A stretch of DNA of 55,631 nucleotides from contig CAMMBL010000003.1 of assembly GCA_946494015.1 (NCBI GenBank), forward strand, positions 1-55,631, given 5' to 3'. Positions 4,181-18,170 of this stretch are shown here, in pieces (positions within the stretch are counted from its first letter, which is position 1; every line of letters begins with the position of its first letter). The notes under the pieces were generated by a model that was not told the DNA's origin, made no database searches, and saw only the letters and a program-made list of their open reading frames with translations. This DNA is from an uncultured Mycoplasmatota bacterium (GTDB lineage: Bacteria; Bacillota_I; Bacilli_A; RF39; UBA660). A program made the position numbers and the translations under genes.

Positions 4181-4780
4181 GTGATACAAATGAATTATCC
4201 TACTGGGATAAAAAAAAGTCATAATGTAATTATCAACTATAGTCATAGAGGAATGACACTAGAAGATGATATAAATCAAACTAATAAATACTATAGAGAT
4301 AATGATATTGCATATATATATAAAAAACCTACACCTATAAAAGTTACAAAAGTAGATTTTAGAAAAGATAGAACTTCAACTATTAAAGAAGCTTTTTATG
4401 AAGAACCATCTACTACTGATTATAATGGTATTTACAAAGGATTTTATATTGACTTTGAAGCAAAAGAGACCAAAAATAAAACATCATTCCCACTAGCTAA
4501 TATTCATAAACACCAATTAAAACATTTAGAAAATATTATAAGACATGGGGGAATCGGCTTTATAGTTGTACGTTTTAGTATGCTAAATGAAACATATCTA
4601 TTAAAAGCAGAAGACCTTTTTTCTTTTACTAAAAGCAGCCAAAGAAAATCAATACCAAGATCTTATTTTAAAGATAAAGGAAAAATGCTAAAAGAAAGCT
4701 TTAGGCCACGATTAGACTATTTAAAAGTAATAGATAATTTTTTGGAGGTAAAAAATAATGACAAAGAAAAAGACAAATAA
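4181..4780 (+). CDS. recU: Holliday junction resolvase RecU
   Basis: MNYPTG start, RGMTLE, YIYKKPTPI, TTDYNGIYKGFYIDFEAKET, HQLKHL motifs; upstream of ponA. Confidence 0.97.
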   Translation: MIQMNYPTGIKKSHNVIINYSHRGMTLEDDINQTNKYYRDNDIAYIYKKPTPIKVTKVDFRKDRTSTIKEAFYEEPSTTDYNGIYKGFYIDFEAKETKNKTSFPLANIHKHQLKHLENIIRHGGIGFIVVRFSMLNETYLLKAEDLFSFTKSSQRKSIPRSYFKDKGKMLKESFRPRLDYLKVIDNFLEVKNNDKEKDK

Positions 4781-8895: not shown

Positions 8896-10006
8896 CGCTA
8901 CCCTCCTTTAACAAATTAAGATATATTTCTTTCGCTAAAAGTAATAGATCTTCTTTTTTATTAGCAACTTTTAACTCAAGAATATAATTCTCTATCTCTT
9001 GCCAAATTTCACGTAAAACAGGTCCTTCTTCAATATCTAAAGTACTCATAATATCATAAGAATCTATTACTATATCACTTCTTTTATGAATAGGCATATC
9101 TTCATATAAATCAACAACTTTCTTTTTATCATATCCCATTATTTCAGAAGCAACTGTACAAACATATAAATCATAATCATATAAAGTTCTAACTGCCAAA
9201 GGATTCTTATCTAATGCTTCTCTTATACTACTCATCAAATTAAGTTCATTTCTAGTAAAAGGATATATATCATCAACTTCTAATAAAGTCCAAATTCCAA
9301 TAACTTGGCTACAAGGCTTTACCTTATTAAGATTTTTTAACTCTAAAAAATTAGTAAGTTCTAATTCTTTAAGTAATTTAATTCCTTTAATTAAATTATT
9401 ACTACTAAAGATTTTATCTAGTTCTTCTTTCTTTCTATTTACAGATAAATCCTTTAATAAATATTTATCTTGTCTAATCGCCTCTTTTAAACTACCATCT
9501 AGTTCAAAATCTAAAGTAGTTGCAAATCTAATAGCCCGTAATATTCTAAGAGAATCAAAAGAAATTGATTTTAAAGGATCGACAACCGTTTTAATTATTT
9601 TTTTATCTATATCTCCTTTATTATTTAATAAATCAATTATATTACCAAATTTATCCATACATATAGTATTAATAGTAAAATCCCTTCTTTTTAAATCTGT
9701 TTTTAAATCATTTACATAAGTTATAACATCAGGATGTCTATTATCACTATAACAATATTCACATCTATAAGTAGTAATTTCAAATCTAATACCATCTAAA
9801 TATATACTAACACTTCCATATGAAGCATTCTCTAAATTAGCATTAGGAAATATCTTAATTAATTCCTTAGGTTTAGCATTAGTAGTAATATCTACATCAT
9901 TAGATTTAACCCCCATTAAATAATCTCTAACAAATCCTCCTACTATATATGCTTCATAAGAATTATCTTCAATCATATTTAAAACTTTTAAGGCTGTATC
10001 TAACAT
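8873..10006 (-). CDS. cca: CCA-adding tRNA nucleotidyltransferase
   Basis: YIVGGFVRD, DVDITT, EITTYR, DLKRRDFTIN, DSLRILRAIRF. Confidence 0.92.
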   Translation of the reverse strand: MLDTALKVLNMIEDNSYEAYIVGGFVRDYLMGVKSNDVDITTNAKPKELIKIFPNANLENASYGSVSIYLDGIRFEITTYRCEYCYSDNRHPDVITYVNDLKTDLKRRDFTINTICMDKFGNIIDLLNNKGDIDKKIIKTVVDPLKSISFDSLRILRAIRFATTLDFELDGSLKEAIRQDKYLLKDLSVNRKKEELDKIFSSNNLIKGIKLLKELELTNFLELKNLNKVKPCSQVIGIWTLLEVDDIYPFTRNELNLMSSIREALDKNPLAVRTLYDYDLYVCTVASEIMGYDKKKVVDLYEDMPIHKRSDIVIDSYDIMSTLDIEEGPVLREIWQEIENYILELKVANKKEDLLLLAKEIYLNLLKEGSDERKVSS

Positions 10007-10062
10007 TATTATATCACCACTACTATTGTATCACATTTAATTTATTTTTTTAAATTATAAAA

Positions 10063-10314
10063 TTATAGACTATCCAAATAATAAAGTATAATCCATATTA
10101 AAAGAAATATTATATTAATAATATAAAAACCTATTTTTGAAGTTTTATGTCTAAATAAAAGCATTGCTAAAAAAGCTCCTAATGCTCCTCCTAAAACACT
10201 AAAACCAAATAATAGTTTTTCACTAATTCTATAATACCCAAAAACTGCTAGAAATTTATCTATTCCATAAAATATAAAAGTAAAAATATTAATCCAAATT
10301 AAATATATATACAT
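10063..10314 (-). CDS. DUF1294 (YsdA-like) small membrane protein
   Basis: YGIDK.LA...YRISEK.L......GGA.GA..AM..FRHKT.K. Confidence 0.88.
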   Translation of the reverse strand: MYIYLIWINIFTFIFYGIDKFLAVFGYYRISEKLLFGFSVLGGALGAFLAMLLFRHKTSKIGFYIINIIFLLIWIILYYLDSL

Positions 10315-10342
10315 AAAGAAAAAAAGCCATTACTGGCTAATT

Positions 10343-10615
10343 TTAATTTACTGCGTCTTTAAGAGCAGATCCTGCTTTAAATGAAACAACATTTCTAGCT
10401 TCAATTTGAACAGTTTCTCCAGTTCTAGGATTACGTCCTTCACGTGCTGCTCTTTTTGATACACTAAATGTACCAAAACCAACTAGTGGAACTTTATCTC
10501 CTTTAGCTAATGCTTCAGCAATAGCTTCACAAAATGCATCAGTAGCACGTACTGCATCAGCTTTAGTTAAACCAGCTTTTTCAGCAACAGCTTCGATTAA
10601 TTCTACTTTTTTCAT
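10343..10615 (-). CDS. hup: Histone-like DNA-binding protein HU
   Basis: GFGTFSV..RAAREGRNPRTGE...I......FKAG..LKDAV. Confidence 0.97.
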   Translation of the reverse strand: MKKVELIEAVAEKAGLTKADAVRATDAFCEAIAEALAKGDKVPLVGFGTFSVSKRAAREGRNPRTGETVQIEARNVVSFKAGSALKDAVN

Positions 10616-10776
10616 TTAAAAACCTCCTATTATATTAAGCATATCTTGCTTACATAATAAGGATACCATGAAAGCCTTTTTAAATCAATGATTTTTAGTG
10701 TTTTTAAAGATAAAAATAAAACAGTTATTTTTATTAAAATATTTTTATAACTGTTTTATATTTCTTGATTTTTTAT

Positions 10777-11253
10777 TTAATTACTAGGAATTTTTAATAT
10801 TTGACCAACAGACAATAAATTAGTTGTTAAATTATTCAAAGATTTAATTGCATCTACTGTTGTATTAAATCTATTAGCTATACTCCATAAACTATCTCCA
10901 CTTTTAACCGTATAATTAACAGGAGTTATATTATTAGAAGATGGTATAAGTAAAACTTGACCTATAGAAAGTAAATTAGATGTTAAACTATTGGCATCTT
11001 TTAAAGCTGCAACTGTAACTCCAAATTGATTGGCAATACTCCATAGACTATCTCCAGACTTTACAGTATAAGTATTTGTAGTTATATTATCATTATCATT
11101 ATTATTATCTTCTTCTAAATCATCACTAGCACTAATACCAGGAATAATCAAAGACTGTCCTATGCTTAAAGTATCACTAATTAAGTCATTTGCATCCCTT
11201 ATTTCTTGAACTGTAATTCCAAATTTCCTAGCTATACTCCAAAGGTTATCTCC
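10777..11253 (-). pseudogene. 3' fragment of the interrupted amidase-LysM gene (rest of LysM4, LysM5, LysM6)
   Basis: The open frame extends 34 codons upstream of the tracked 11151 start as GDNLWSIARKFGITVQEIRDANDLISDTLSIGQSLIIP, beginning exactly at the attachment core. It is in frame with the 5' fragment. Confidence 0.93.
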
Positions 11254-11269
11254 AGATACATTTTTTATG
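11247..11269. repeat. Left attachment junction (core TATCTCC plus arm AGATACATTTTTTATG)
   Basis: Read directly; the arm is the 15/16 reverse complement of the arm at 15369-15384. Confidence 0.92.
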
Positions 11270-12830
11270 TAACATTTTTAAATGTAAATATAATATCTAT
11301 CGTTTTGTCCTGATAGATATAAATTTTTTCAACCAAATTTATTATCAATTCTCTAGTTGGATTTTCTAATGATAAAAATTCATTAATATATTTTTCTATC
11401 ATTTTATTATCTATTTTATTGGATTCACTATTTTCATTTTTAAGATTATCAATACTTGATTTATTATTTTCTATTTCATGCTTTAGATTTTCACTAACTC
11501 TTATATATTGTTCTTCATCAATAATACCCTTTAACATATTCATATAATTTTTATCCAAAGTTTCAGTTAAGTTATTATTTGCAAATTCTAAACTTTCTAT
11601 TTGCTTTTTTATTTTTAAAGTATTATCTATAGGGCTTATATTACCAATAGATTCTTTTACCTTATTTCTATCTAAATACTTTTTGCAAACTCCTTTTATA
11701 TTATCTAAAATAATCCTTTCTAGATTTTCATAATTGTTTGTATGAGTTGTGCAAACATGATATTTAGAATATGTTCTGTAATAATCACAAGTGGTATAAC
11801 TTCTACCTGTTTTATTTTGGTATCTAATTGTTATTCTGTGTTTACAATCTCCACAATATAAAAGCCCATCTAATAAATAAAATCTTTTTTTATCAGGTCT
11901 TTTAACATTTTTAGGTAGTAAAGTTTGTACATAATTAAATTTATCTCTATCAATAATTGCCTCATGGGTATTCTCAACTATAATATAGTCATTGGGGTTA
12001 TTTTTAACCGTCTTTTTAAGTTTATAATTAATCTTTTTAGTTTTACCTTGAACTGTATCTCCTACATATATCTGATTAGTAAGTATTGCTTTTACAGTAG
12101 TATCAACCCATATACCATATTCTTGGCTTATACAATTTGTATTTATGCACTTTGTATTCCATACATAATTATAATAAGATGCTGGAGTTTTAATTTTTCT
12201 TTCTGTAAGATATTGTGCTATATAATGGTAGGTATTACCTTTTAGTGCTAAATCAAATATCAATTTAACAGTATCTGCTTGTTCAACATTCACTACTAAA
12301 TGATTTTTATTTGTTGGATCTTTTATATAACCAAAAGGACATCTACCAGATACATATAATCCTTCTTTCATTCTAGAATGTAAACTTGTTTTAACTTTTT
12401 TAGAAATATCTTTAGCATACATATCATTCATTATTGCTTTAAAAGGTGCTATGTCATTATTAGTATTATCTATAAATGTGTCTATACCATCATTAATAGC
12501 AATATACCTAACATTTTTATTTGGAAAATACTTTTCTATTAATTCACCTGTACCAATATAATCTCTACCTAATCTAGACATGTCTTTGGTAATAATCATA
12601 TTGATTTTACCAAGTTCAATATCTTTCATCATTTTTTTGAATGCTGGTCTATCAAAATTAGTTCCTGAAAATCCATCATCAACATATTCATCTACTACTA
12701 TGTAATTATTTTCTTTAACATATTGTTTTAGTAAACTTCTTTGACTAATAACACTATCAGATTCTATTTTTCCATCATCTCTTGATAATCTTATATATAA
12801 TCCTACTTTAAAACTACTATTCCCAATCAT
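11265..12830 (-). CDS. Large serine recombinase (resolvase, recombinase and zinc-ribbon domains; SpoIVCA/TnpX-like)
   Basis: YIRLS catalytic Ser, YVDDGFSGTNFDRPAF, KDMSRLGRD, PFGY, HEAIID, CGDC...C...C zinc ribbon, 521 aa. Confidence 0.96.
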   Translation of the reverse strand: MIGNSSFKVGLYIRLSRDDGKIESDSVISQRSLLKQYVKENNYIVVDEYVDDGFSGTNFDRPAFKKMMKDIELGKINMIITKDMSRLGRDYIGTGELIEKYFPNKNVRYIAINDGIDTFIDNTNNDIAPFKAIMNDMYAKDISKKVKTSLHSRMKEGLYVSGRCPFGYIKDPTNKNHLVVNVEQADTVKLIFDLALKGNTYHYIAQYLTERKIKTPASYYNYVWNTKCINTNCISQEYGIWVDTTVKAILTNQIYVGDTVQGKTKKINYKLKKTVKNNPNDYIIVENTHEAIIDRDKFNYVQTLLPKNVKRPDKKRFYLLDGLLYCGDCKHRITIRYQNKTGRSYTTCDYYRTYSKYHVCTTHTNNYENLERIILDNIKGVCKKYLDRNKVKESIGNISPIDNTLKIKKQIESLEFANNNLTETLDKNYMNMLKGIIDEEQYIRVSENLKHEIENNKSSIDNLKNENSESNKIDNKMIEKYINEFLSLENPTRELIINLVEKIYIYQDKTIDIIFTFKNVT

Positions 12831-13009
12831 TAATTATTTCTCCTTTCCTTTTGGGAATAATGAGTATGATTGAATGGTAGCTCTAAATTTAAAATATTAC
12901 AAGTCTTATTAATCTTTTTTTGTAATTCAATTTTTAATACTTCAGTTATTGTTTCGTTTAAAGATTTTCCATTTTCTTTAAACTTTAAATTAACTTTGTA
13001 TTCAACCAT
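12830..13009 (-). CDS. 59-aa basic protein coupled to the recombinase (candidate recombination directionality factor)
   Basis: ATG at 13009 after GGAGG; stop overlaps the recombinase start; the ORF track gives a 65-aa version. Function is inferred from position only. Confidence 0.6.
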   Translation of the reverse strand: MVEYKVNLKFKENGKSLNETITEVLKIELQKKINKTCNILNLELPFNHTHYSQKERRNN

Positions 13010-13109
13010 AGAGTTTATTACCTCCATTTAAACCTATGGCATTAACTTTAATTTTAGTAATATTATTTGGTATGCATATTACATACTCAAAAATATTACT
13101 TAACTTCAT
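13002..13109 (-). CDS. Unannotated 35-aa ORF (MKLSNIFEYVICIPNNITKIKVNAIGLNGGNKLYG)
   Basis: GGAGG RBS; overlaps both neighbouring small ORFs. Confidence 0.35.
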   Translation of the reverse strand: MKLSNIFEYVICIPNNITKIKVNAIGLNGGNKLYG

Positions 13110-13140
13110 ATTCCTCCATTATATTTTTCATAAACATCAT
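13096..13140 (-). CDS. Unannotated 14-aa leader ORF (MMFMKNIMEEYEVK)
   Basis: AAGGAG RBS immediately downstream of a sigma-A-like promoter. Confidence 0.3.
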   Translation of the reverse strand: MMFMKNIMEEYEVK

Positions 13141-13154
13141 CTCCTTTTGCATGG

Positions 13155-13183
13155 ATGATACCTCTTTAAAATATAGGAGTCAA
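13155..13183 (-). promoter_or_regulatory. Sigma-A-like promoter for the small ORFs and recombinase
   Basis: TTGACT-17 nt-TATCAT on the minus strand. Confidence 0.65.
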
Positions 13184-13250
13184 GTTATATTTTTATTGTT
13201 AATTTTTTATATTATCCTAAAATTCAAAAAAATTAATTAATTACTGATTA

Positions 13251-13340
13251 GCAGGATAAGAAGTAGGCGCCTTGATCCTTATTTTTCTTTATAAAATAAG
13301 TAAAATAGTAGGTGCCATTCTTATTTTGCACTTGCAAAAT
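13251..13340 (-). other. Candidate origin of transfer (MOBP/RP4-like nic motif with repeats)
   Basis: Minus strand GCCTACTTC-T-TATCCTGC versus RP4 oriT GCCTACTTC-ACC-TATCCTG^C (recalled); flanked by two AGTAGGYGCC...CTTATTTT direct repeats and short inverted repeats. Confidence 0.5.
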
Positions 13341-13456
13341 TCATCCTATTTTATAGGTTTATATTAAGGTTAAATATAAACAATATAAAATTTTAAGACA
13401 ATAAAAAATCATCCTTTTTTCCAATTTTTATTAAAAATAGTAGGATGATTAAATTT

Positions 13457-14182
13457 TTATTTTTGTTTAATGGTTTTTAATTTTTCATCATAATAATTAA
13501 ACATCTTCTGAATTATATTATCACCAAATTCATTAATCGTTGAAAAATCTGACATTAAATTTTTAAATTGCTCAATACTTAATATTTCTGATAAATATCT
13601 TATAGATAGATAACTTAAATCATAGCCATTATAGTTATCATTAATGAAAGAATTTCCATGTTTTAAATTATTCATTTGAGGTATTACTTTGGTTTGCTCC
13701 CTTACCCTTAAATAAAAATCATTAAAAACACCTGAATCGTTCAGTGAATCTTTTTCTCCTGACATAAATTGTGCCATTCCTTCATCGTACCAAACTATCC
13801 TTTTTGAATAATCATTGTGCAATATATATTTCATATATAAAATATGAAATAATTCATGGCTAGCAGTATACAATCTTTTTAACTGGAATTTAGGATTCAC
13901 ACACGCATTAACCATTTCATTATCATAAGTCCCTGTAGCATATTCGGGTAACGAATCTCTTTCACCTCTTAAAGAATATATAAATTCTCTAAATTCTTCT
14001 ACATTATCAAAATAATTAACAACTATTGGTTCATCACTAGAAATACTAAAAAATAATTTATATTCTTCTATCTTTTTATTAAGTAAGGAAACAGTTGCTT
14101 GTGCTAAATTTTCTAGGCTCTCTGAATAATTTATTTCACACAAGTTTGTTTTTAAACTTTTTCTCATTTTCATCACCACCAC
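13457..14182 (-). CDS. Gluzincin-type zinc metallopeptidase (MA clan-like), no signal peptide evident
   Basis: SHELFH (HExxH) followed by WYDEGMAQF (third-ligand EG.A motif) and C-terminal Y..SYL.I.YL helix. Confidence 0.72.
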   Translation of the reverse strand: MVVMKMRKSLKTNLCEINYSESLENLAQATVSLLNKKIEEYKLFFSISSDEPIVVNYFDNVEEFREFIYSLRGERDSLPEYATGTYDNEMVNACVNPKFQLKRLYTASHELFHILYMKYILHNDYSKRIVWYDEGMAQFMSGEKDSLNDSGVFNDFYLRVREQTKVIPQMNNLKHGNSFINDNYNGYDLSYLSIRYLSEILSIEQFKNLMSDFSTINEFGDNIIQKMFNYYDEKLKTIKQK

Positions 14183-14184
14183 AA

Positions 14185-15264
14185 TTAACTTTCTAAATCT
14201 TTTTCAGATAAATTTAACATATTCCTAGCTCTCAATAAGAGTTGCTGATAAGTAAGAATATGTATATTGTGATAAGAAGAATTCAATATTCTTAAATATT
14301 TTTTTTCTTCATCACTTAATTCATTCTTAGTACCAATTAATATAATACCTCTTGGTCTTGCTATGACACAATCATTATCATCTTGATAACTATTATTTGA
14401 AGTCATTTTTTCTAATTCAAAAATATAATTTTGAGTTTGTGCAATTGCTTTTGTTAATTCACTAGATGAATAATAATTTTTATGATTCGTATCATAATGA
14501 AATAACTCCGCAGTTGGTAATTTAACTTCTATTATATCAATAAAATCCTCTAAATTTTTAGGAATACCATCTAATATATTTTTAGAATTAATTTTTTCTT
14601 CTTTTACAAAAGTACAATATTCACTCCCAAAAAGCCACAAATTTTTCTTTAAAAATTTTTGTATAAAAACTTCATTTTTAAATTTACCATTAATTATTTT
14701 TTCTAGATCTAAAATTGCTTGTTCTTTCATTTTAATATTTACTAATTTATAATAATCATCTATGCTATCAATATTATTTTCTATTAATTTAAGAAAATCA
14801 TTTTTTGAAATAGCTTTATTATAATTGTTATTAGAAGTTTGAATTTTATATGACAAATCATTATTACATAATTTTATTTCATCTAAAAATTGTTTTAAAA
14901 CGCTTATTGCGTGAGGGTTTAATGTTACTTCTTGTTCATTGTAGATATTGCCTTTAGATGTTCTTCTACATATATGTAAACCAGAAGTTTTATTACCTTC
15001 TTCTGTCTCAACAAGCCAACACCAATATTTCTGTTGTCCTGTTGGTGATTCGAATAATTTTATCTTTTCTGAAATTTTAAATTCAAGAGATTGCTGTCCA
15101 ATCTCATATTGTTCTTCTGTATATGTATTTCCGCAATCTGATATTGCCTCAGCCATTCTATAATTATCTCCATCCTCTTTATTTATTTTTTTACCTATGT
15201 ATATTTTTCCATCTTTTTTATTATCATCAAAATTCGGATTAAAATTATTCAAGCAAATCACCAC
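14185..15264 (-). CDS. Shedu (SduA/DUF4263)-like anti-phage nuclease
   Basis: E.FIQKFLKKNLWLFG.EY, D...D.IEVK.P (PD-(D/E)xK), ELTKAIAQ..NY, PRGIILIG, I.ILTY..LL.RA: the DUF4263 core, preceded by an unrecognised N-terminal domain. Confidence 0.75.
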   Translation of the reverse strand: MVICLNNFNPNFDDNKKDGKIYIGKKINKEDGDNYRMAEAISDCGNTYTEEQYEIGQQSLEFKISEKIKLFESPTGQQKYWCWLVETEEGNKTSGLHICRRTSKGNIYNEQEVTLNPHAISVLKQFLDEIKLCNNDLSYKIQTSNNNYNKAISKNDFLKLIENNIDSIDDYYKLVNIKMKEQAILDLEKIINGKFKNEVFIQKFLKKNLWLFGSEYCTFVKEEKINSKNILDGIPKNLEDFIDIIEVKLPTAELFHYDTNHKNYYSSSELTKAIAQTQNYIFELEKMTSNNSYQDDNDCVIARPRGIILIGTKNELSDEEKKYLRILNSSYHNIHILTYQQLLLRARNMLNLSEKDLES

Positions 15265-15298
15265 CCAAAGTTTTTAGTTATCTATAATTATATCATAT

Positions 15299-15327
15299 AA
15301 AAAGGCACTTTTCTTAAAAAAGCCCTT
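15299..15327 (-). terminator. Intrinsic terminator supplied by the element downstream of the truncated amidase
   Basis: Minus strand AAGGGCTTTT-ttaag-AAAAGTGCC-TTTTT hairpin plus U-tract, 27 nt after the new stop codon. Confidence 0.55.
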
Positions 15328-15353
15328 AAGATTCCTTGTGATTTTAAATATTT

Positions 15354-16538
15354 CTACTCATTATTCCCCATAAAAATTGTATCTCCTTTTTCTACTGTGT
15401 AATAAAAGACAGCACCATTATTATCTCCTTGATTATTATTTTCACCACTAACACCAGGAATAGTTAGAACTTGGCCTACACTAAGAGTATCAGTTACAAG
15501 ATTATTAGCATCTCTTATTTGTTGAACTGTAACTCCAAATTGATTAGCAATCTTCCATAAACTATCTCCTTTTACTACCGTATAAGTAGTAGAGGGCTGT
15601 GTTTGATTATTATCTTCATTGTCATTACCTGCACCAGGAATTATTAAAACTTGGCCGATACTAAGGACATCACTTGTCAAATTATTAGCTCTCCTTAAAT
15701 CATTAACACTAATACCATAACGACTTGCTATACTCCATAAACTATCTCCCTTTTGAACAGTATAAGTAGTAGATCCACCTATATTATTATCATTATTTCC
15801 ATTATTACCAGGTATTCTTAAAACTTGTCCTACACTAAGAAGATCAGTTGTTAAATTATTAGCATCTCTTAACTCTTGTACAGTAACTCCAAAGCGATTA
15901 GCAATACTCCAAAGACTATCTCCTTTTTTTACTGTATAAAAATTAGTACCACTTCCTTCTGGTGGAGTATAAGGAACTCCAGCATATTCAGCAATTGCTC
16001 TAACTACTGCTTCTACATAATTTAATAAATCATTTTGTAACTTAACTCTATCATTAGCATTATCAATAAAACCATACTCTACAAGTAATGATTGCATAGG
16101 AGAAGTTTCTCTAATAATATAATAATAATCTTTTGAAGGATCTTCTGGTAATCTTCTTTGATAATATTTACGCATAATTTGTCCTTCAGAACCAATTTCT
16201 TCTAAAATATTTTGAGCTAAAGTAGAAGAATTACGCAAAGCATAAATAACTTCAGCACCTTCTCCTCCTCCAGCATTTATATGATTAGAAATAAGTATAG
16301 CATCCCTACTTCCACCAAAAGCCTCATTAGCACGTCTAAGCCGTTCTTCTCTACTCAAATTTTCATCAAAATCTCTTGTTAAAACTGCTGGTATACCTAG
16401 TTCTTGTAATCTTTCATACATATATAAAGAAGCATCTAATGTAAAATTTTTCTCTTGCAAGCCACCACTAACAGCTCCAGGATCAGAACCTCCATGTCCC
16501 GCATCTACAACAACACCTGTTACTCTACGCTCATTCAT
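15354..16538 (-). CDS. N-acetylmuramoyl-L-alanine amidase (Amidase_3) with 3 LysM repeats; 5' part of the interrupted gene
   Basis: VVVDAGHGGSDPGA, EKNFTL, ISNHINAGGGEGAE, LLVEYGF; three complete LysM repeats, then YTVEKGD breaking into the element-derived tail TIFMGNNE. Start at ATG 16538 after GAGGTG. Confidence 0.93.
   Translation of the reverse strand: MNERRVTGVVVDAGHGGSDPGAVSGGLQEKNFTLDASLYMYERLQELGIPAVLTRDFDENLSREERLRRANEAFGGSRDAILISNHINAGGGEGAEVIYALRNSSTLAQNILEEIGSEGQIMRKYYQRRLPEDPSKDYYYIIRETSPMQSLLVEYGFIDNANDRVKLQNDLLNYVEAVVRAIAEYAGVPYTPPEGSGTNFYTVKKGDSLWSIANRFGVTVQELRDANNLTTDLLSVGQVLRIPGNNGNNDNNIGGSTTYTVQKGDSLWSIASRYGISVNDLRRANNLTSDVLSIGQVLIIPGAGNDNEDNNQTQPSTTYTVVKGDSLWKIANQFGVTVQQIRDANNLVTDTLSVGQVLTIPGVSGENNNQGDNNGAVFYYTVEKGDTIFMGNNE
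15369..15386. repeat. Right attachment junction (arm CATAAAAATTGTATCT plus CC; core TATCTCC 15380-15386)
   Basis: Read directly. Confidence 0.92.
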
Positions 16539-16901
16539 AATATTCACCTCTACATTAAAATATGTAAAAAGGCCTATTTTGCTACTATTATAAGCATTAA
16601 GCTTAATAAAACTAACTATATTTTAAAAAATAAAAGATTTTCTAATGATGAAATATTATAAAACCAAAATAAAATATTAACAACAACAAAACATAACTTA
16701 AAAAAATTTGATAGAGGTGTATTTTCTAAAATGGAAAACAATACCAATGCTAAATTAAATACACTAGTAAAAAACTTACAGGCAAAAAAAATAACCTTTT
16801 GCTTTTTAGCAATACGGCTATTTTTATATAACAAATTACTTAATAACTTTTTATAGTTTTTGATATTAAATTCAATAAACTTATAATTCTTTCTTATTAA
16901 T

Positions 16902-18170
16902 CTACCAATCTCTATCTTGATAAGGAGTACTTTCAATACCTTCATTTTGCAATTTTTTTACAAGCTTATCTAATTTACCTTTCCACAATTTTTTAAACCA
17001 TTTAGTATTACCAAAAAGTTTAACTATTGTTGGACTAATAGTATAATATGTATGAATAAATAATCTTCCATACCACGTTTTTGCTAATTTATAATCTCTA
17101 TATCTTCTTAATGTCCAAACCTGAGGACAATCATATGATCCATAAACACAAGTAGCAACATAACATCCACCAGCATTACTATTAGATGGAGCTGGTCTAG
17201 GTGGTACTTCATAATTAGGATCAAGTTCTTTAATCTTATTATGATATTCCATAATCTTATCTATTAATTGTTCTTTATATTCTACTTTCCAAAATTTATC
17301 AGTAACCCATCCTCCCCTTTGTGAGCTATATGTATAAGATTTAGCCGCTTCAAGATCTGTTGTAATAATAATCAAATTTTTATAAATTTGAATATCATTT
17401 TCTTTATCATCATCACACAAACTAATAGCTGTTTCTAATAATAATATAGCTCCTTTTGTTTTCTCAGTATAATTTTCAAAATCATAATCATTAGGATGTC
17501 CATCTCTACCTACATAATCAGCCCTAATTTTATTATAAGCTGAAACAACAGAAACATTAATAACATCAGCTAACTCAGCATTTATATCATCCATATTAGC
17601 TTTGCATTTTATTAAAAACTTTAATGCAATTTTCTTTATTGTAAGTATTCCATTTAATATAGTATTTGCTTCTGATACACTTCCATATTTAGCATAATTC
17701 TTACAAGCAAGAGAAACTAATGCACTACATAAAGTTGTTGTTTCTTTAATCGCTTCTTTTTTCATTTCTTTAACTCTATCTTTAGGAGCACTATCAATTG
17801 CTTTTTGAAAAGCATTTACCGACTCATCAATTCTTAAATTTGCTAATGTAGATTGCCATCCAGCCGCTTTACCTTTCAATAACCAAGCATCACAATTAGT
17901 AGGTTCAATTTCAATAATTTTATTACAATAATTTTCAGCTTCTTTTTTATTATCAGCATCATAAGCATTATTTGCCATCATTAAATAATTTTTAATTTTA
18001 TCAGTATCATCAACTTTAACTTTACTTCCAGAAACATCTACTTTTCCTTCAACCATCATCTTCTTAGCTTCTTCAACAGAATATTTTGTCCCACAACTCT
18101 GACAAACAAACACATTATCCTTTTTTAATAAATCATTACTACCACACATTTCACATACAATTTTTTTCAT
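16902..18170 (-). CDS. TFIIB-type zinc ribbon + TPR + CFI-box-CTERM domain protein
   Basis: CEMCGS...CQSCGT; TPR-like EAENYCNKIIEIEPTNCDAWLLKG; C-terminal GGCYVATCVYGSYDCPQVWTLRRYRD...GRLFI.TYY.ISP. Confidence 0.8.
   Translation of the reverse strand: MKKIVCEMCGSNDLLKKDNVFVCQSCGTKYSVEEAKKMMVEGKVDVSGSKVKVDDTDKIKNYLMMANNAYDADNKKEAENYCNKIIEIEPTNCDAWLLKGKAAGWQSTLANLRIDESVNAFQKAIDSAPKDRVKEMKKEAIKETTTLCSALVSLACKNYAKYGSVSEANTILNGILTIKKIALKFLIKCKANMDDINAELADVINVSVVSAYNKIRADYVGRDGHPNDYDFENYTEKTKGAILLLETAISLCDDDKENDIQIYKNLIIITTDLEAAKSYTYSSQRGGWVTDKFWKVEYKEQLIDKIMEYHNKIKELDPNYEVPPRPAPSNSNAGGCYVATCVYGSYDCPQVWTLRRYRDYKLAKTWYGRLFIHTYYTISPTIVKLFGNTKWFKKLWKGKLDKLVKKLQNEGIESTPYQDRDW

Follow-up and report, generated by a model that had tools for sequence, protein, structure and literature searches.

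The stretch of DNA considered here, referred to below as the window, comprises positions 1 to 55,631 of contig CAMMBL010000003.1 (assembly GCA_946494015.1) from an uncultured Mycoplasmatota bacterium, the genome of which is 1.23 Mb in size with a GC content of 26%. On the minus strand, positions 16538-10777 hold a single gene for an N-acetylmuramoyl-L-alanine amidase with an Amidase_3 domain and six LysM repeats (Pfam), which is broken within the fourth repeat (LysM4) by an insert of 4,133 bp. The insert encodes a large serine recombinase (LSR), a small open reading frame (ORF) in front of it, a metallopeptidase-like protein and the Shedu nuclease SduA. Joining the flanks gives an open frame for an intact protein of 542 amino acids with Amidase_3 and all six repeats, in which LysM4 reads YYTVEK/GDNLWSIARKFG (here and below, the slash marks the junction). 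The ATG at 16538 is the likely start of the amidase, the ORF list giving a GTG at 16547; in the occupied gene the insert appends TIFMGNNE and a stop codon to the truncated protein. The left and right attachment junctions, attL and attR, read gaaaaaGGAGATAcaattttt (15380-15386) and tgtatctGGAGATAacctttgg (11247-11253), respectively. The best explanation, which we consider highly probable, is that the insert is an integrative cassette with its own LSR that targets the codons of LysM repeats as interchangeable sites.

Relatives of the recombinase are encoded by 527 candidate stretches in a one-genome-per-species collection, and the 80 best of these, with identities of 76-98%, were retrieved. The stop codon of the recombinase is followed, in about 60 of 78 loci, by AAAnTGTATC(T/A)GG and then by the 3' portion of a LysM repeat, which varies from locus to locus. 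A conserved left end, GG-nGATACAATTTTTATGGGGAATAA, is present upstream of the recombinase in 50 loci and gives pairs of attL and attR, and joining the flanks of these pairs at the GG restores an open frame of the form Y.V../GD[ST]L[WY].IA in 48 of the 50. The two exceptions are a tandem array (L019) and an insertion at a non-LysM site (L075), which is likely to be off-target; its flanks (positions 4320 and 9230) read ...gtcgtagaaaccGG/ggtttagttaaaaaaaag and form no LysM frame when joined. The paired elements measure 2.85-7.9 kb, occupy the first, second, third, fourth or fifth repeat in genes with one to six repeats, and are in every case oriented in the direction of the LysM reading frame. 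Their host genes encode Amidase_3-LysM proteins (27 loci), PG_binding_1-LysM, Peptidase_M23-LysM and GH25-LysM proteins, and LysM-only or other proteins, so that recombinases of 76-98% identity use five or more host gene families, which exceeds the three target clusters beyond which an LSR counts as multi-targeting. The original prediction, made from the window alone, had named LysM4 as the occupied repeat and had proposed an integrase that targets a LysM codon pattern, to be checked on homologous recombinases. These indeed sit at LysM G-D codons in various genes and repeat positions of other species, the opposite of confinement to one repeat or to non-LysM loci, and at the level of the family the interpretation is supported.

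Some sites hold more than one element. Three loci (L019:9566-11200, L049:4030-5400 and L074:1271-2950) show, after the element with the recombinase, a P-GG-P' junction between the two arms of the element's own site, a remnant of 1.3-1.7 kb without recombinase, and a second attR with a LysM 3' half, and are tandem accretion arrays. Within the same bacterial family as the window, 33 of 301 sampled genomes (11%) encode a recombinase that is at least 77% identical. Clades with 58% identity or less have other flanks, for example with a P-type-ATPase-like EGLPMMITLVLS motif; recombinases with 47-50% identity end beside EGLPMMITLVLSSNMKR, which also has the look of a P-type ATPase, and those with 55-57% identity end beside ...KKGQRHVCPINTRIINHHIYRHTY. 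LysM targeting thus does not extend beyond the clade with about 76% identity or more. The more distant recombinases (L134-L137, L126, L129 and L133) appear to use other coding motifs as targets.

The site of the element, attP, contains 111 bits over 68 positions and is a near-perfect palindrome, ...ATAAAAAnTGTATC(T/A) GG (n)GATACAATTTTTAT..., with a 16-2-16 arrangement (TGTATC(T/A)-GG-(N)GATACA) and arms of about 30 bp. Its symmetry about the GG is 0.8-1.0 at offsets 2-6 and 9-16, and the target site attB is weakly symmetric, as in the att sites of serine integrases, where an attP of about 50 bp has inverted-repeat arms on either side of a non-palindromic central dinucleotide and attB is shorter and less symmetric. 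Strand exchange by serine integrases is staggered by 2 bp at this dinucleotide, and excision calls for a directionality factor. The attB contains 63 bits with a periodicity of 3 nt (TAT-ACn-GTn-AAa-nnn-GGn-GAT-ASn-YTn-TGG/TAT-nnn-ATT-GCn; the slash here separates alternatives), and its conservation is that imposed by the LysM peptide. The recognized attB is probably about 40 bp long and encodes Y-x-V-x-x-G-D-[ST]-L-[WY]-x-I-A, and crossover would take place at the GG of the glycine codon. A scan of the whole 1.23-Mb genome with a matrix built from used sites retrieved six intact sites that score at least as high as the weakest used site, namely the five empty repeats of the window gene and one site on contig 41; a shuffled genome gave no match and the real genome LysM sites only. 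The used-site median under this matrix is 43.2, which is exceeded by LysM1 (52.5), for instance.

The window itself had attracted attention by the heptamer GGAGATA, and this observation is confirmed. All six LysM repeats have the heptamer at their G-D codons in a single register, the six flanks quoted in the original prediction agree with the sequence in every letter, and G-D is preceded by K, K, K, K, S and S in LysM1-6, in line with the (K/S)-G-D that had been claimed. The further idea that the heptamer is the core of the insertion site stands only in so far as it is present in all repeats: as a determinant it fails, since exact GGAGATA occurs in 22 of 47 used and 49 of 122 unused sites. At 26% GC it is the expected spelling of Gly-Asp codons, and therefore the heptamer alone is weak evidence of targeting. 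A seventh copy (15422-15428) encodes the QGD of QGDNNG in the Asn/Asp-rich linker between LysM3 and LysM4, outside the LysM register, and matches the reconstructed attB at 20 of 47 central positions. The window contains 18 copies against 7.2 expected, an excess that stems from homologous repeats and AT-rich codon choice (GGA GAT A..) and not from independent events. The shared heptamer is thus a chance local overlap of the P' arm (GG-AGATACA) with the G-D-[ST] codons, and the GG is the probable functional centre. Targets exist in many genes, repeats and species, but in this genome they are not abundant, and only the six intact sites mentioned above pass the matrix.

That these elements move is indicated by comparisons of close relatives. 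All 21 closest scorable recombinase pairs (93.5-98.5% identity) lie in different LysM contexts with attB identities of 32-44 out of 68 positions, and the host flanks of near-identical elements part ways from the first base past the GG, which excludes transfer via flanking homology. Loci L024 and L028 have their main cargo genes in common and recombinases that are 98% identical, yet one element sits in the second of four repeats and the other in the fourth of four, in different genes. The window recombinase differs from that of L001 by a synonymous divergence (dS) of 0.045, while the L001 element is found in repeat 3 of an amidase with four LysM repeats and carries PDC-S32 and a DpnII restriction-modification system. 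Genome G108, a metagenome-assembled genome that is 71% complete with 4% contamination, has two copies in two different LysM genes. Among family members the ratio of nonsynonymous to synonymous divergence (dN/dS) of the recombinase is 0.08-0.19, and the recombinase is therefore under purifying selection.

An empty allele also exists. The orthologous LysM4 site is uninterrupted in genomes of the same genus, and contigs from the metagenome runs X8 and X9 connect position 11246 directly with 15380 and so leave out precisely 4,133 bp, with seven shared letters; the X9 contig has one differing letter over 547 covered flank bases. Other contigs from both runs span the occupied attL, and occupied and empty alleles thus appear to coexist on near-identical flanks. 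Loose attL ends in runs X5, X6, X7 and X10 were considered as the window element in another repeat and rejected, since they come from other members of the family or from orthologous hosts. In the metatranscriptome run X3, unbroken contigs cross attR from the HU gene region to the 3' end of the recombinase (window 10000-11612) and attL from the 5' part of the amidase to sduA (window 14913-17000), which suggests read-through transcription, although DNA carry-over could also explain them.

These observations are best explained by a small, non-conjugative and non-phage integrative cassette that is moved by its own LSR and presumably passes from cell to cell without transfer genes of its own. The attB would be the roughly 40 bp of DNA for the N-terminal segment of a LysM repeat, with strand exchange at the GG of the glycine codon, and the constant co-direction of element and LysM frame would follow from the fact that GG is not palindromic. 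Since the protein fold is under selection, this DNA would stay conserved, and any LysM repeat of AT-rich Firmicutes could serve as a landing site, so that the family could spread over genes, repeat positions and species with interchangeable, largely anti-phage cargo. For the window gene, the prediction is that all five empty repeats would serve equally well. When used (47) and unused (122) repeats are compared with a leave-one-out matrix of used sites, the area under the curve is 0.56 (P = 0.13), position by position there are weak differences only (at -18, -17 and +22), and the occupied LysM4 of the window has the lowest matrix score among its six repeats.

However, several points weigh against this picture. 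The GG is common to all attL/attR pairs, but it was demanded by the search pattern, and the GA three bases past it is common to 45 of 47 pairs. attL and attR are identical over an unbroken 2-13 bp (median 4), with 13 bp in L029, and because of this long run and the shared GA the assignment of the crossover leans mainly on the symmetry of attP. The used repeat is the top scorer in its own gene in 20 of 43 cases, compared with 12.8 expected, and the first repeat is used in 18 of 42 cases, compared with 12.3 expected (P ~0.04), so that the sites may not be fully equivalent. The matrix cannot separate the requirement of the enzyme from coding constraint, and the same applies to the information in attB. 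The competence of the five empty repeats as attB is a prediction from their matrix scores, which are higher than that of LysM4. The genome of the window contains one copy of the element only, and no circle junction of its attP was found in assembler contigs of eight public runs. Four further serine-recombinase genes in this genome (contig positions C14:6521-7213, C25:11370-12590, C1:55451-56908 and C8:13776-14216) were rejected as extra copies, their products being 26-34% identical to the window recombinase.

Table 1. Features of the interrupted amidase gene and its insert (window coordinates).
Feature	Position	Strand	Evidence or remark
Putative sigmaK-type -10 box (CATAnnnTA), CATATTTTA	16556..16564	-	26 nt before amidase ATG
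Host gene 5' part: Amidase_3, LysM1-3, first 5 codons of LysM4	15387..16538	-	Pfam Amidase_3 5.8e-33, LysM 4.3e-62
GGAGATA of LysM1, empty candidate attB centre	15917-15923	-	Site-matrix score 52.5
GGAGATA of LysM2, empty candidate attB centre	15743-15749	-	Site-matrix score 53.5
GGAGATA of LysM3, empty candidate attB centre	15563-15569	-	Site-matrix score 48.6
attL overlap GGAGATA; proposed crossover GG 15385-15386	15380..15386	-	GG is the attP symmetry centre
P' arm of attP, AGATACAATTTTTATGGGGAATAATGAGTA	15355..15384	-	0-4 mismatches over 26 nt in paired related loci
Shedu nuclease SduA, cargo, 359 aa	14185..15264	-	Pfam SduA_C 1.3e-19; PADLOC SduA 1.8e-40
Metallopeptidase-like cargo protein, 241 aa, HExxH (HELFH)	13457..14182	-	Weak Pfam Peptidase_M9 and MA_2, under curated cut-offs
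Small conserved ORF overlapping recombinase start	12830..13027	-	65 aa as listed; 59 aa from ATG 13009 with conserved ribosome-binding site
Large serine recombinase, 521 aa	11265..12830	-	Pfam Resolvase 11-157, Recombinase 183-306, Zn_ribbon_recom 319-379
P arm of attP, includes recombinase stop codon	11254..11283	-	attP alignment of related loci
attR overlap GGAGATA; proposed crossover GG 11252-11253	11247..11253	-	Empty-site joint 11246/15380 in X8 and X9
Host gene 3' part: remainder of LysM4, LysM5, LysM6, stop codon	10777..11246	-	Pfam LysM 3.9e-37; in frame once joined
GGAGATA of LysM5, empty candidate attB centre	11049-11055	-	Site-matrix score 55.5, best in genome
GGAGATA of LysM6, empty candidate attB centre	10893-10899	-	Site-matrix score 51.5

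The recombinase (Table 1) has the Resolvase, Recombinase and zinc-ribbon domains of LSRs in this order, and these three are the only domains listed by Pfam, DUF4368 being absent. Its best match in the Protein Data Bank (PDB) is the N-terminal domain of TnpX (4e-29), and SprA (1e-17) shows full-length similarity. None of the NCBIfam models reaches its cut-off, the best being CcrB with 112 bits compared with a cut-off of 900. A phage origin was rejected, as the best match to the recombinase in phage records is 35% identical. The constant module of the elements consists of a conserved sigmaA-like promoter (TTGACT-17-TAnnAT), short leader ORFs, the ORF of 59-65 amino acids and the recombinase. The small ORF belongs to gene cluster C1, which is present in 28 of 50 elements, and is conserved at the nucleotide level; some loci have a separate ORF of 67 amino acids. 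It matches no family in Pfam, PADLOC or NCBIfam, and by its position and size is a candidate recombination directionality factor, in which case the 59-amino-acid product would act in excision.

Among the other explanations, one survives better than the rest, namely that the insert is a gene-intervening element similar to skin, SPbeta and gin, which is excised late in sporulation by the LSR and a small directionality factor so that the amidase of the mother cell is rebuilt, while the spore retains the element. We see this as possible, though short of probable; it is compatible with multi-site targeting, to which it would add a layer. Despite its size of 1.23 Mb, the genome encodes Spo0A (contig C16) and SpoIVA (contig C1). 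The sequence AC-N16/17-CATAnnnTA is known from B. subtilis as the sigmaK promoter pattern. The retrieved loci provide 11 distinct regions upstream of amidase genes; 10 of these have CATAnnnTA at -24 to -27, in most cases preceded by AC at a distance of 16-17 nt, and the motif may act as a promoter. A second split of these amidase genes is frequent: no fewer than seven related loci (L003:6142, L006:3106, L013:2205, L014:5231, L036:4085, L070:6296 and L072:6014) have another break in the Amidase_3 domain at NHINAGG/GEGAE (junction ...caggt/GGnGAnGG), made by an element with a different serine recombinase that is 31-39% identical to that of the window, the gene of which is intact at this site. 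Between two occupied alleles, that of the window and L013, where an element lies at the orthologous LysM4 site, dN/dS is 0.20 for the detached 3' fragment and similar, 0.17, for the 5' part, and 48 of 50 split genes are still open when joined, which would likewise agree with this view. The conserved small ORF before the recombinase also has a precedent in gin, with GirC and the 42-amino-acid GirX (PMC5595907).

However, the M23, GH25 and other LysM genes that serve as targets mostly lack the sigmaK-like motif, and the dN/dS values may mirror history that precedes the insertion. A mother-cell-type promoter before the recombinase module was sought but not found, only the sigmaA-like one being conserved. 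The evidence fits the tentative idea that the amidase is a mother-cell lysis enzyme that growing cells can do without and that excision may rebuild. A broader scenario, which we offer as speculation and rate below an even chance, combines this with domain homing: the LSR would take as its specificity the LysM codon consensus, which selection cannot erase and which occurs in nearly every Firmicute; its favoured hosts would be sigmaK-driven, CwlC-like mother-cell amidases, which other LSR families also split at NHINAGG/G and which excision during sporulation would rebuild, so that a whole group of interchangeable defence islets could cross spores almost free of cost; and insertion at different repeats, or recombination between these, could alter the LysM copy number.

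Compared with targeting of LysM codons by a dedicated LSR, the remaining explanations fare poorly. A serine transposase of the TndX/TnpX type with relaxed specificity would need no more than a short core sequence within AT-rich DNA, and insertions in LysM repeats would simply reflect the frequency of sequence of this kind; the catalytic domain nearest to TnpX, the several target gene families and the non-LysM insertion in L075 agree with this, but it is made very unlikely by 48 of 50 insertions at one register of one protein motif, by a matrix that finds nothing but LysM sites in the real genome and nothing at all in the shuffled one, and by the absence of DUF4368 together with an attB of about 63 bits. 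Slightly less credit still is due to a single-site integrase with an attB formed by the LysM4 locus and its orthologues, in which case the heptamer in the other repeats would come from repeat homology and codon bias and have no function. GGAGATA is indeed GGA-GAT-A at 26% GC, there is one copy in the genome and the L013 element lies at the orthologous LysM4, but recombinases that are 94-98% identical are found at LysM sites that are unrelated to one another, spread over five or more host gene families and over repeats 1-5, which renders this explanation highly improbable. Passive spread by homologous recombination or gene conversion through the flanking LysM halves, for example after transformation, could draw on short LysM homology on both sides, but is hardly tenable with flanks that differ from the first base past the GG, junctions that all fall at the same dinucleotide, and strong conservation of the recombinase and the attP arms.

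Integration by an LSR is in itself a well-known class of mechanism, and the family described here resembles several known systems. The gin element in gerE of Bacillus cereus, like the elements of the LysM family, is not a phage; it is 28.6 kb in size, and gin, skin with SpoIVCA and SPbeta with SprA-SprB share with the LysM family the LSR-driven movement, a small partner ORF and the possibility of restriction-modification cargo, as well as the in-frame position in a gene that precise removal restores and that, in the case of the LysM family, may be part of the mother-cell programme (PMC5595907). Each of these, however, uses one fixed gene, whereas the LysM family uses a domain motif in many genes and repeats, and its elements are far smaller than gin. 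The multi-targeting clade of LSRs, whose closely related members use more than three clusters of unrelated target genes and typically have DUF4368 (Durrant et al., 2022; PMC10083194), includes TndX/TnpX-like enzymes that likewise have many target genes and to which the catalytic domain of the window recombinase is nearest. These recognize a short motif that is rich in AT and surrounds TT or GA, in contrast to the long, domain-tied motif of the LysM family, which lacks DUF4368. LysM is mentioned neither in that study nor in those of its supplements that were searched (Durrant et al., 2022). Cassettes of the staphylococcal cassette chromosome (SCC) type are moved by Ccr serine recombinases and include anti-phage cargo (PMC11470126). 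They are similarly small, lack replication, conjugation and capsid genes, have variable defence cargo and form tandem or remnant arrays at their site, but integrate only at the 3' end of rlmH, whereas the window recombinase targets LysM and is no orthologue of Ccr, as its low CcrB score indicates. The likeness to Shedu (SduA) concerns the cargo of the window only and not the targeting mechanism.

Full-text literature searches on LysM as a target of serine recombinases turned up no published description of a family of this kind. What appears to be new is a long and specific attB set by the codons of a protein domain, and hence repeated within genes and shared over genes and taxa, as well as multi-targeting without DUF4368, the marker of the known multi-targeting clade, and cassettes of very small size whose defence cargo varies widely. 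Serine integrases are usually described with one chromosomal site or with loose specificity. Here, a site of about 40 bp is specific and nevertheless repeated in genes and taxa because it codes for a conserved domain motif, which would explain how a cassette of 3-8 kb without transfer genes has come to be present in several hundred or more species-level genomes of gut Firmicutes. The family shuttles very diverse anti-phage systems and thus provides a compact route for the exchange of defence genes and a source of new candidate systems, and the more than 45 natural attB variants for one attP lend themselves to studies of how LSRs recognize their sites and to use as a tool. Should excision be coupled to sporulation, the concept of the rearranged sporulation gene would extend to gut bacteria with very small genomes.

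The cargo of the elements is highly variable and largely anti-phage, with 81 gene clusters in 50 elements. Annotated cargo includes RhuM/PDC-S05, AbiU/AIPR, OLD/Gabija-like ATPase-nucleases, PDC-S32, PDC-M33A, an HNH protein and, in the window, Shedu; a DpnII restriction-modification system with two methylases is present in 8-11 loci. The SduA_C match of the window protein reaches 71 bits compared with a Pfam cut-off of 27, as expected for a Shedu nuclease of the SduA (DUF4263) type. The neighbouring metallopeptidase-like gene forms cluster C11 and occurs in three further elements, all without Shedu. Not all cargo appears defence-like: judged by eye, the L024 and L028 elements seem to encode a TetR-type regulator and a multi-pass membrane protein of 1,354 amino acids.

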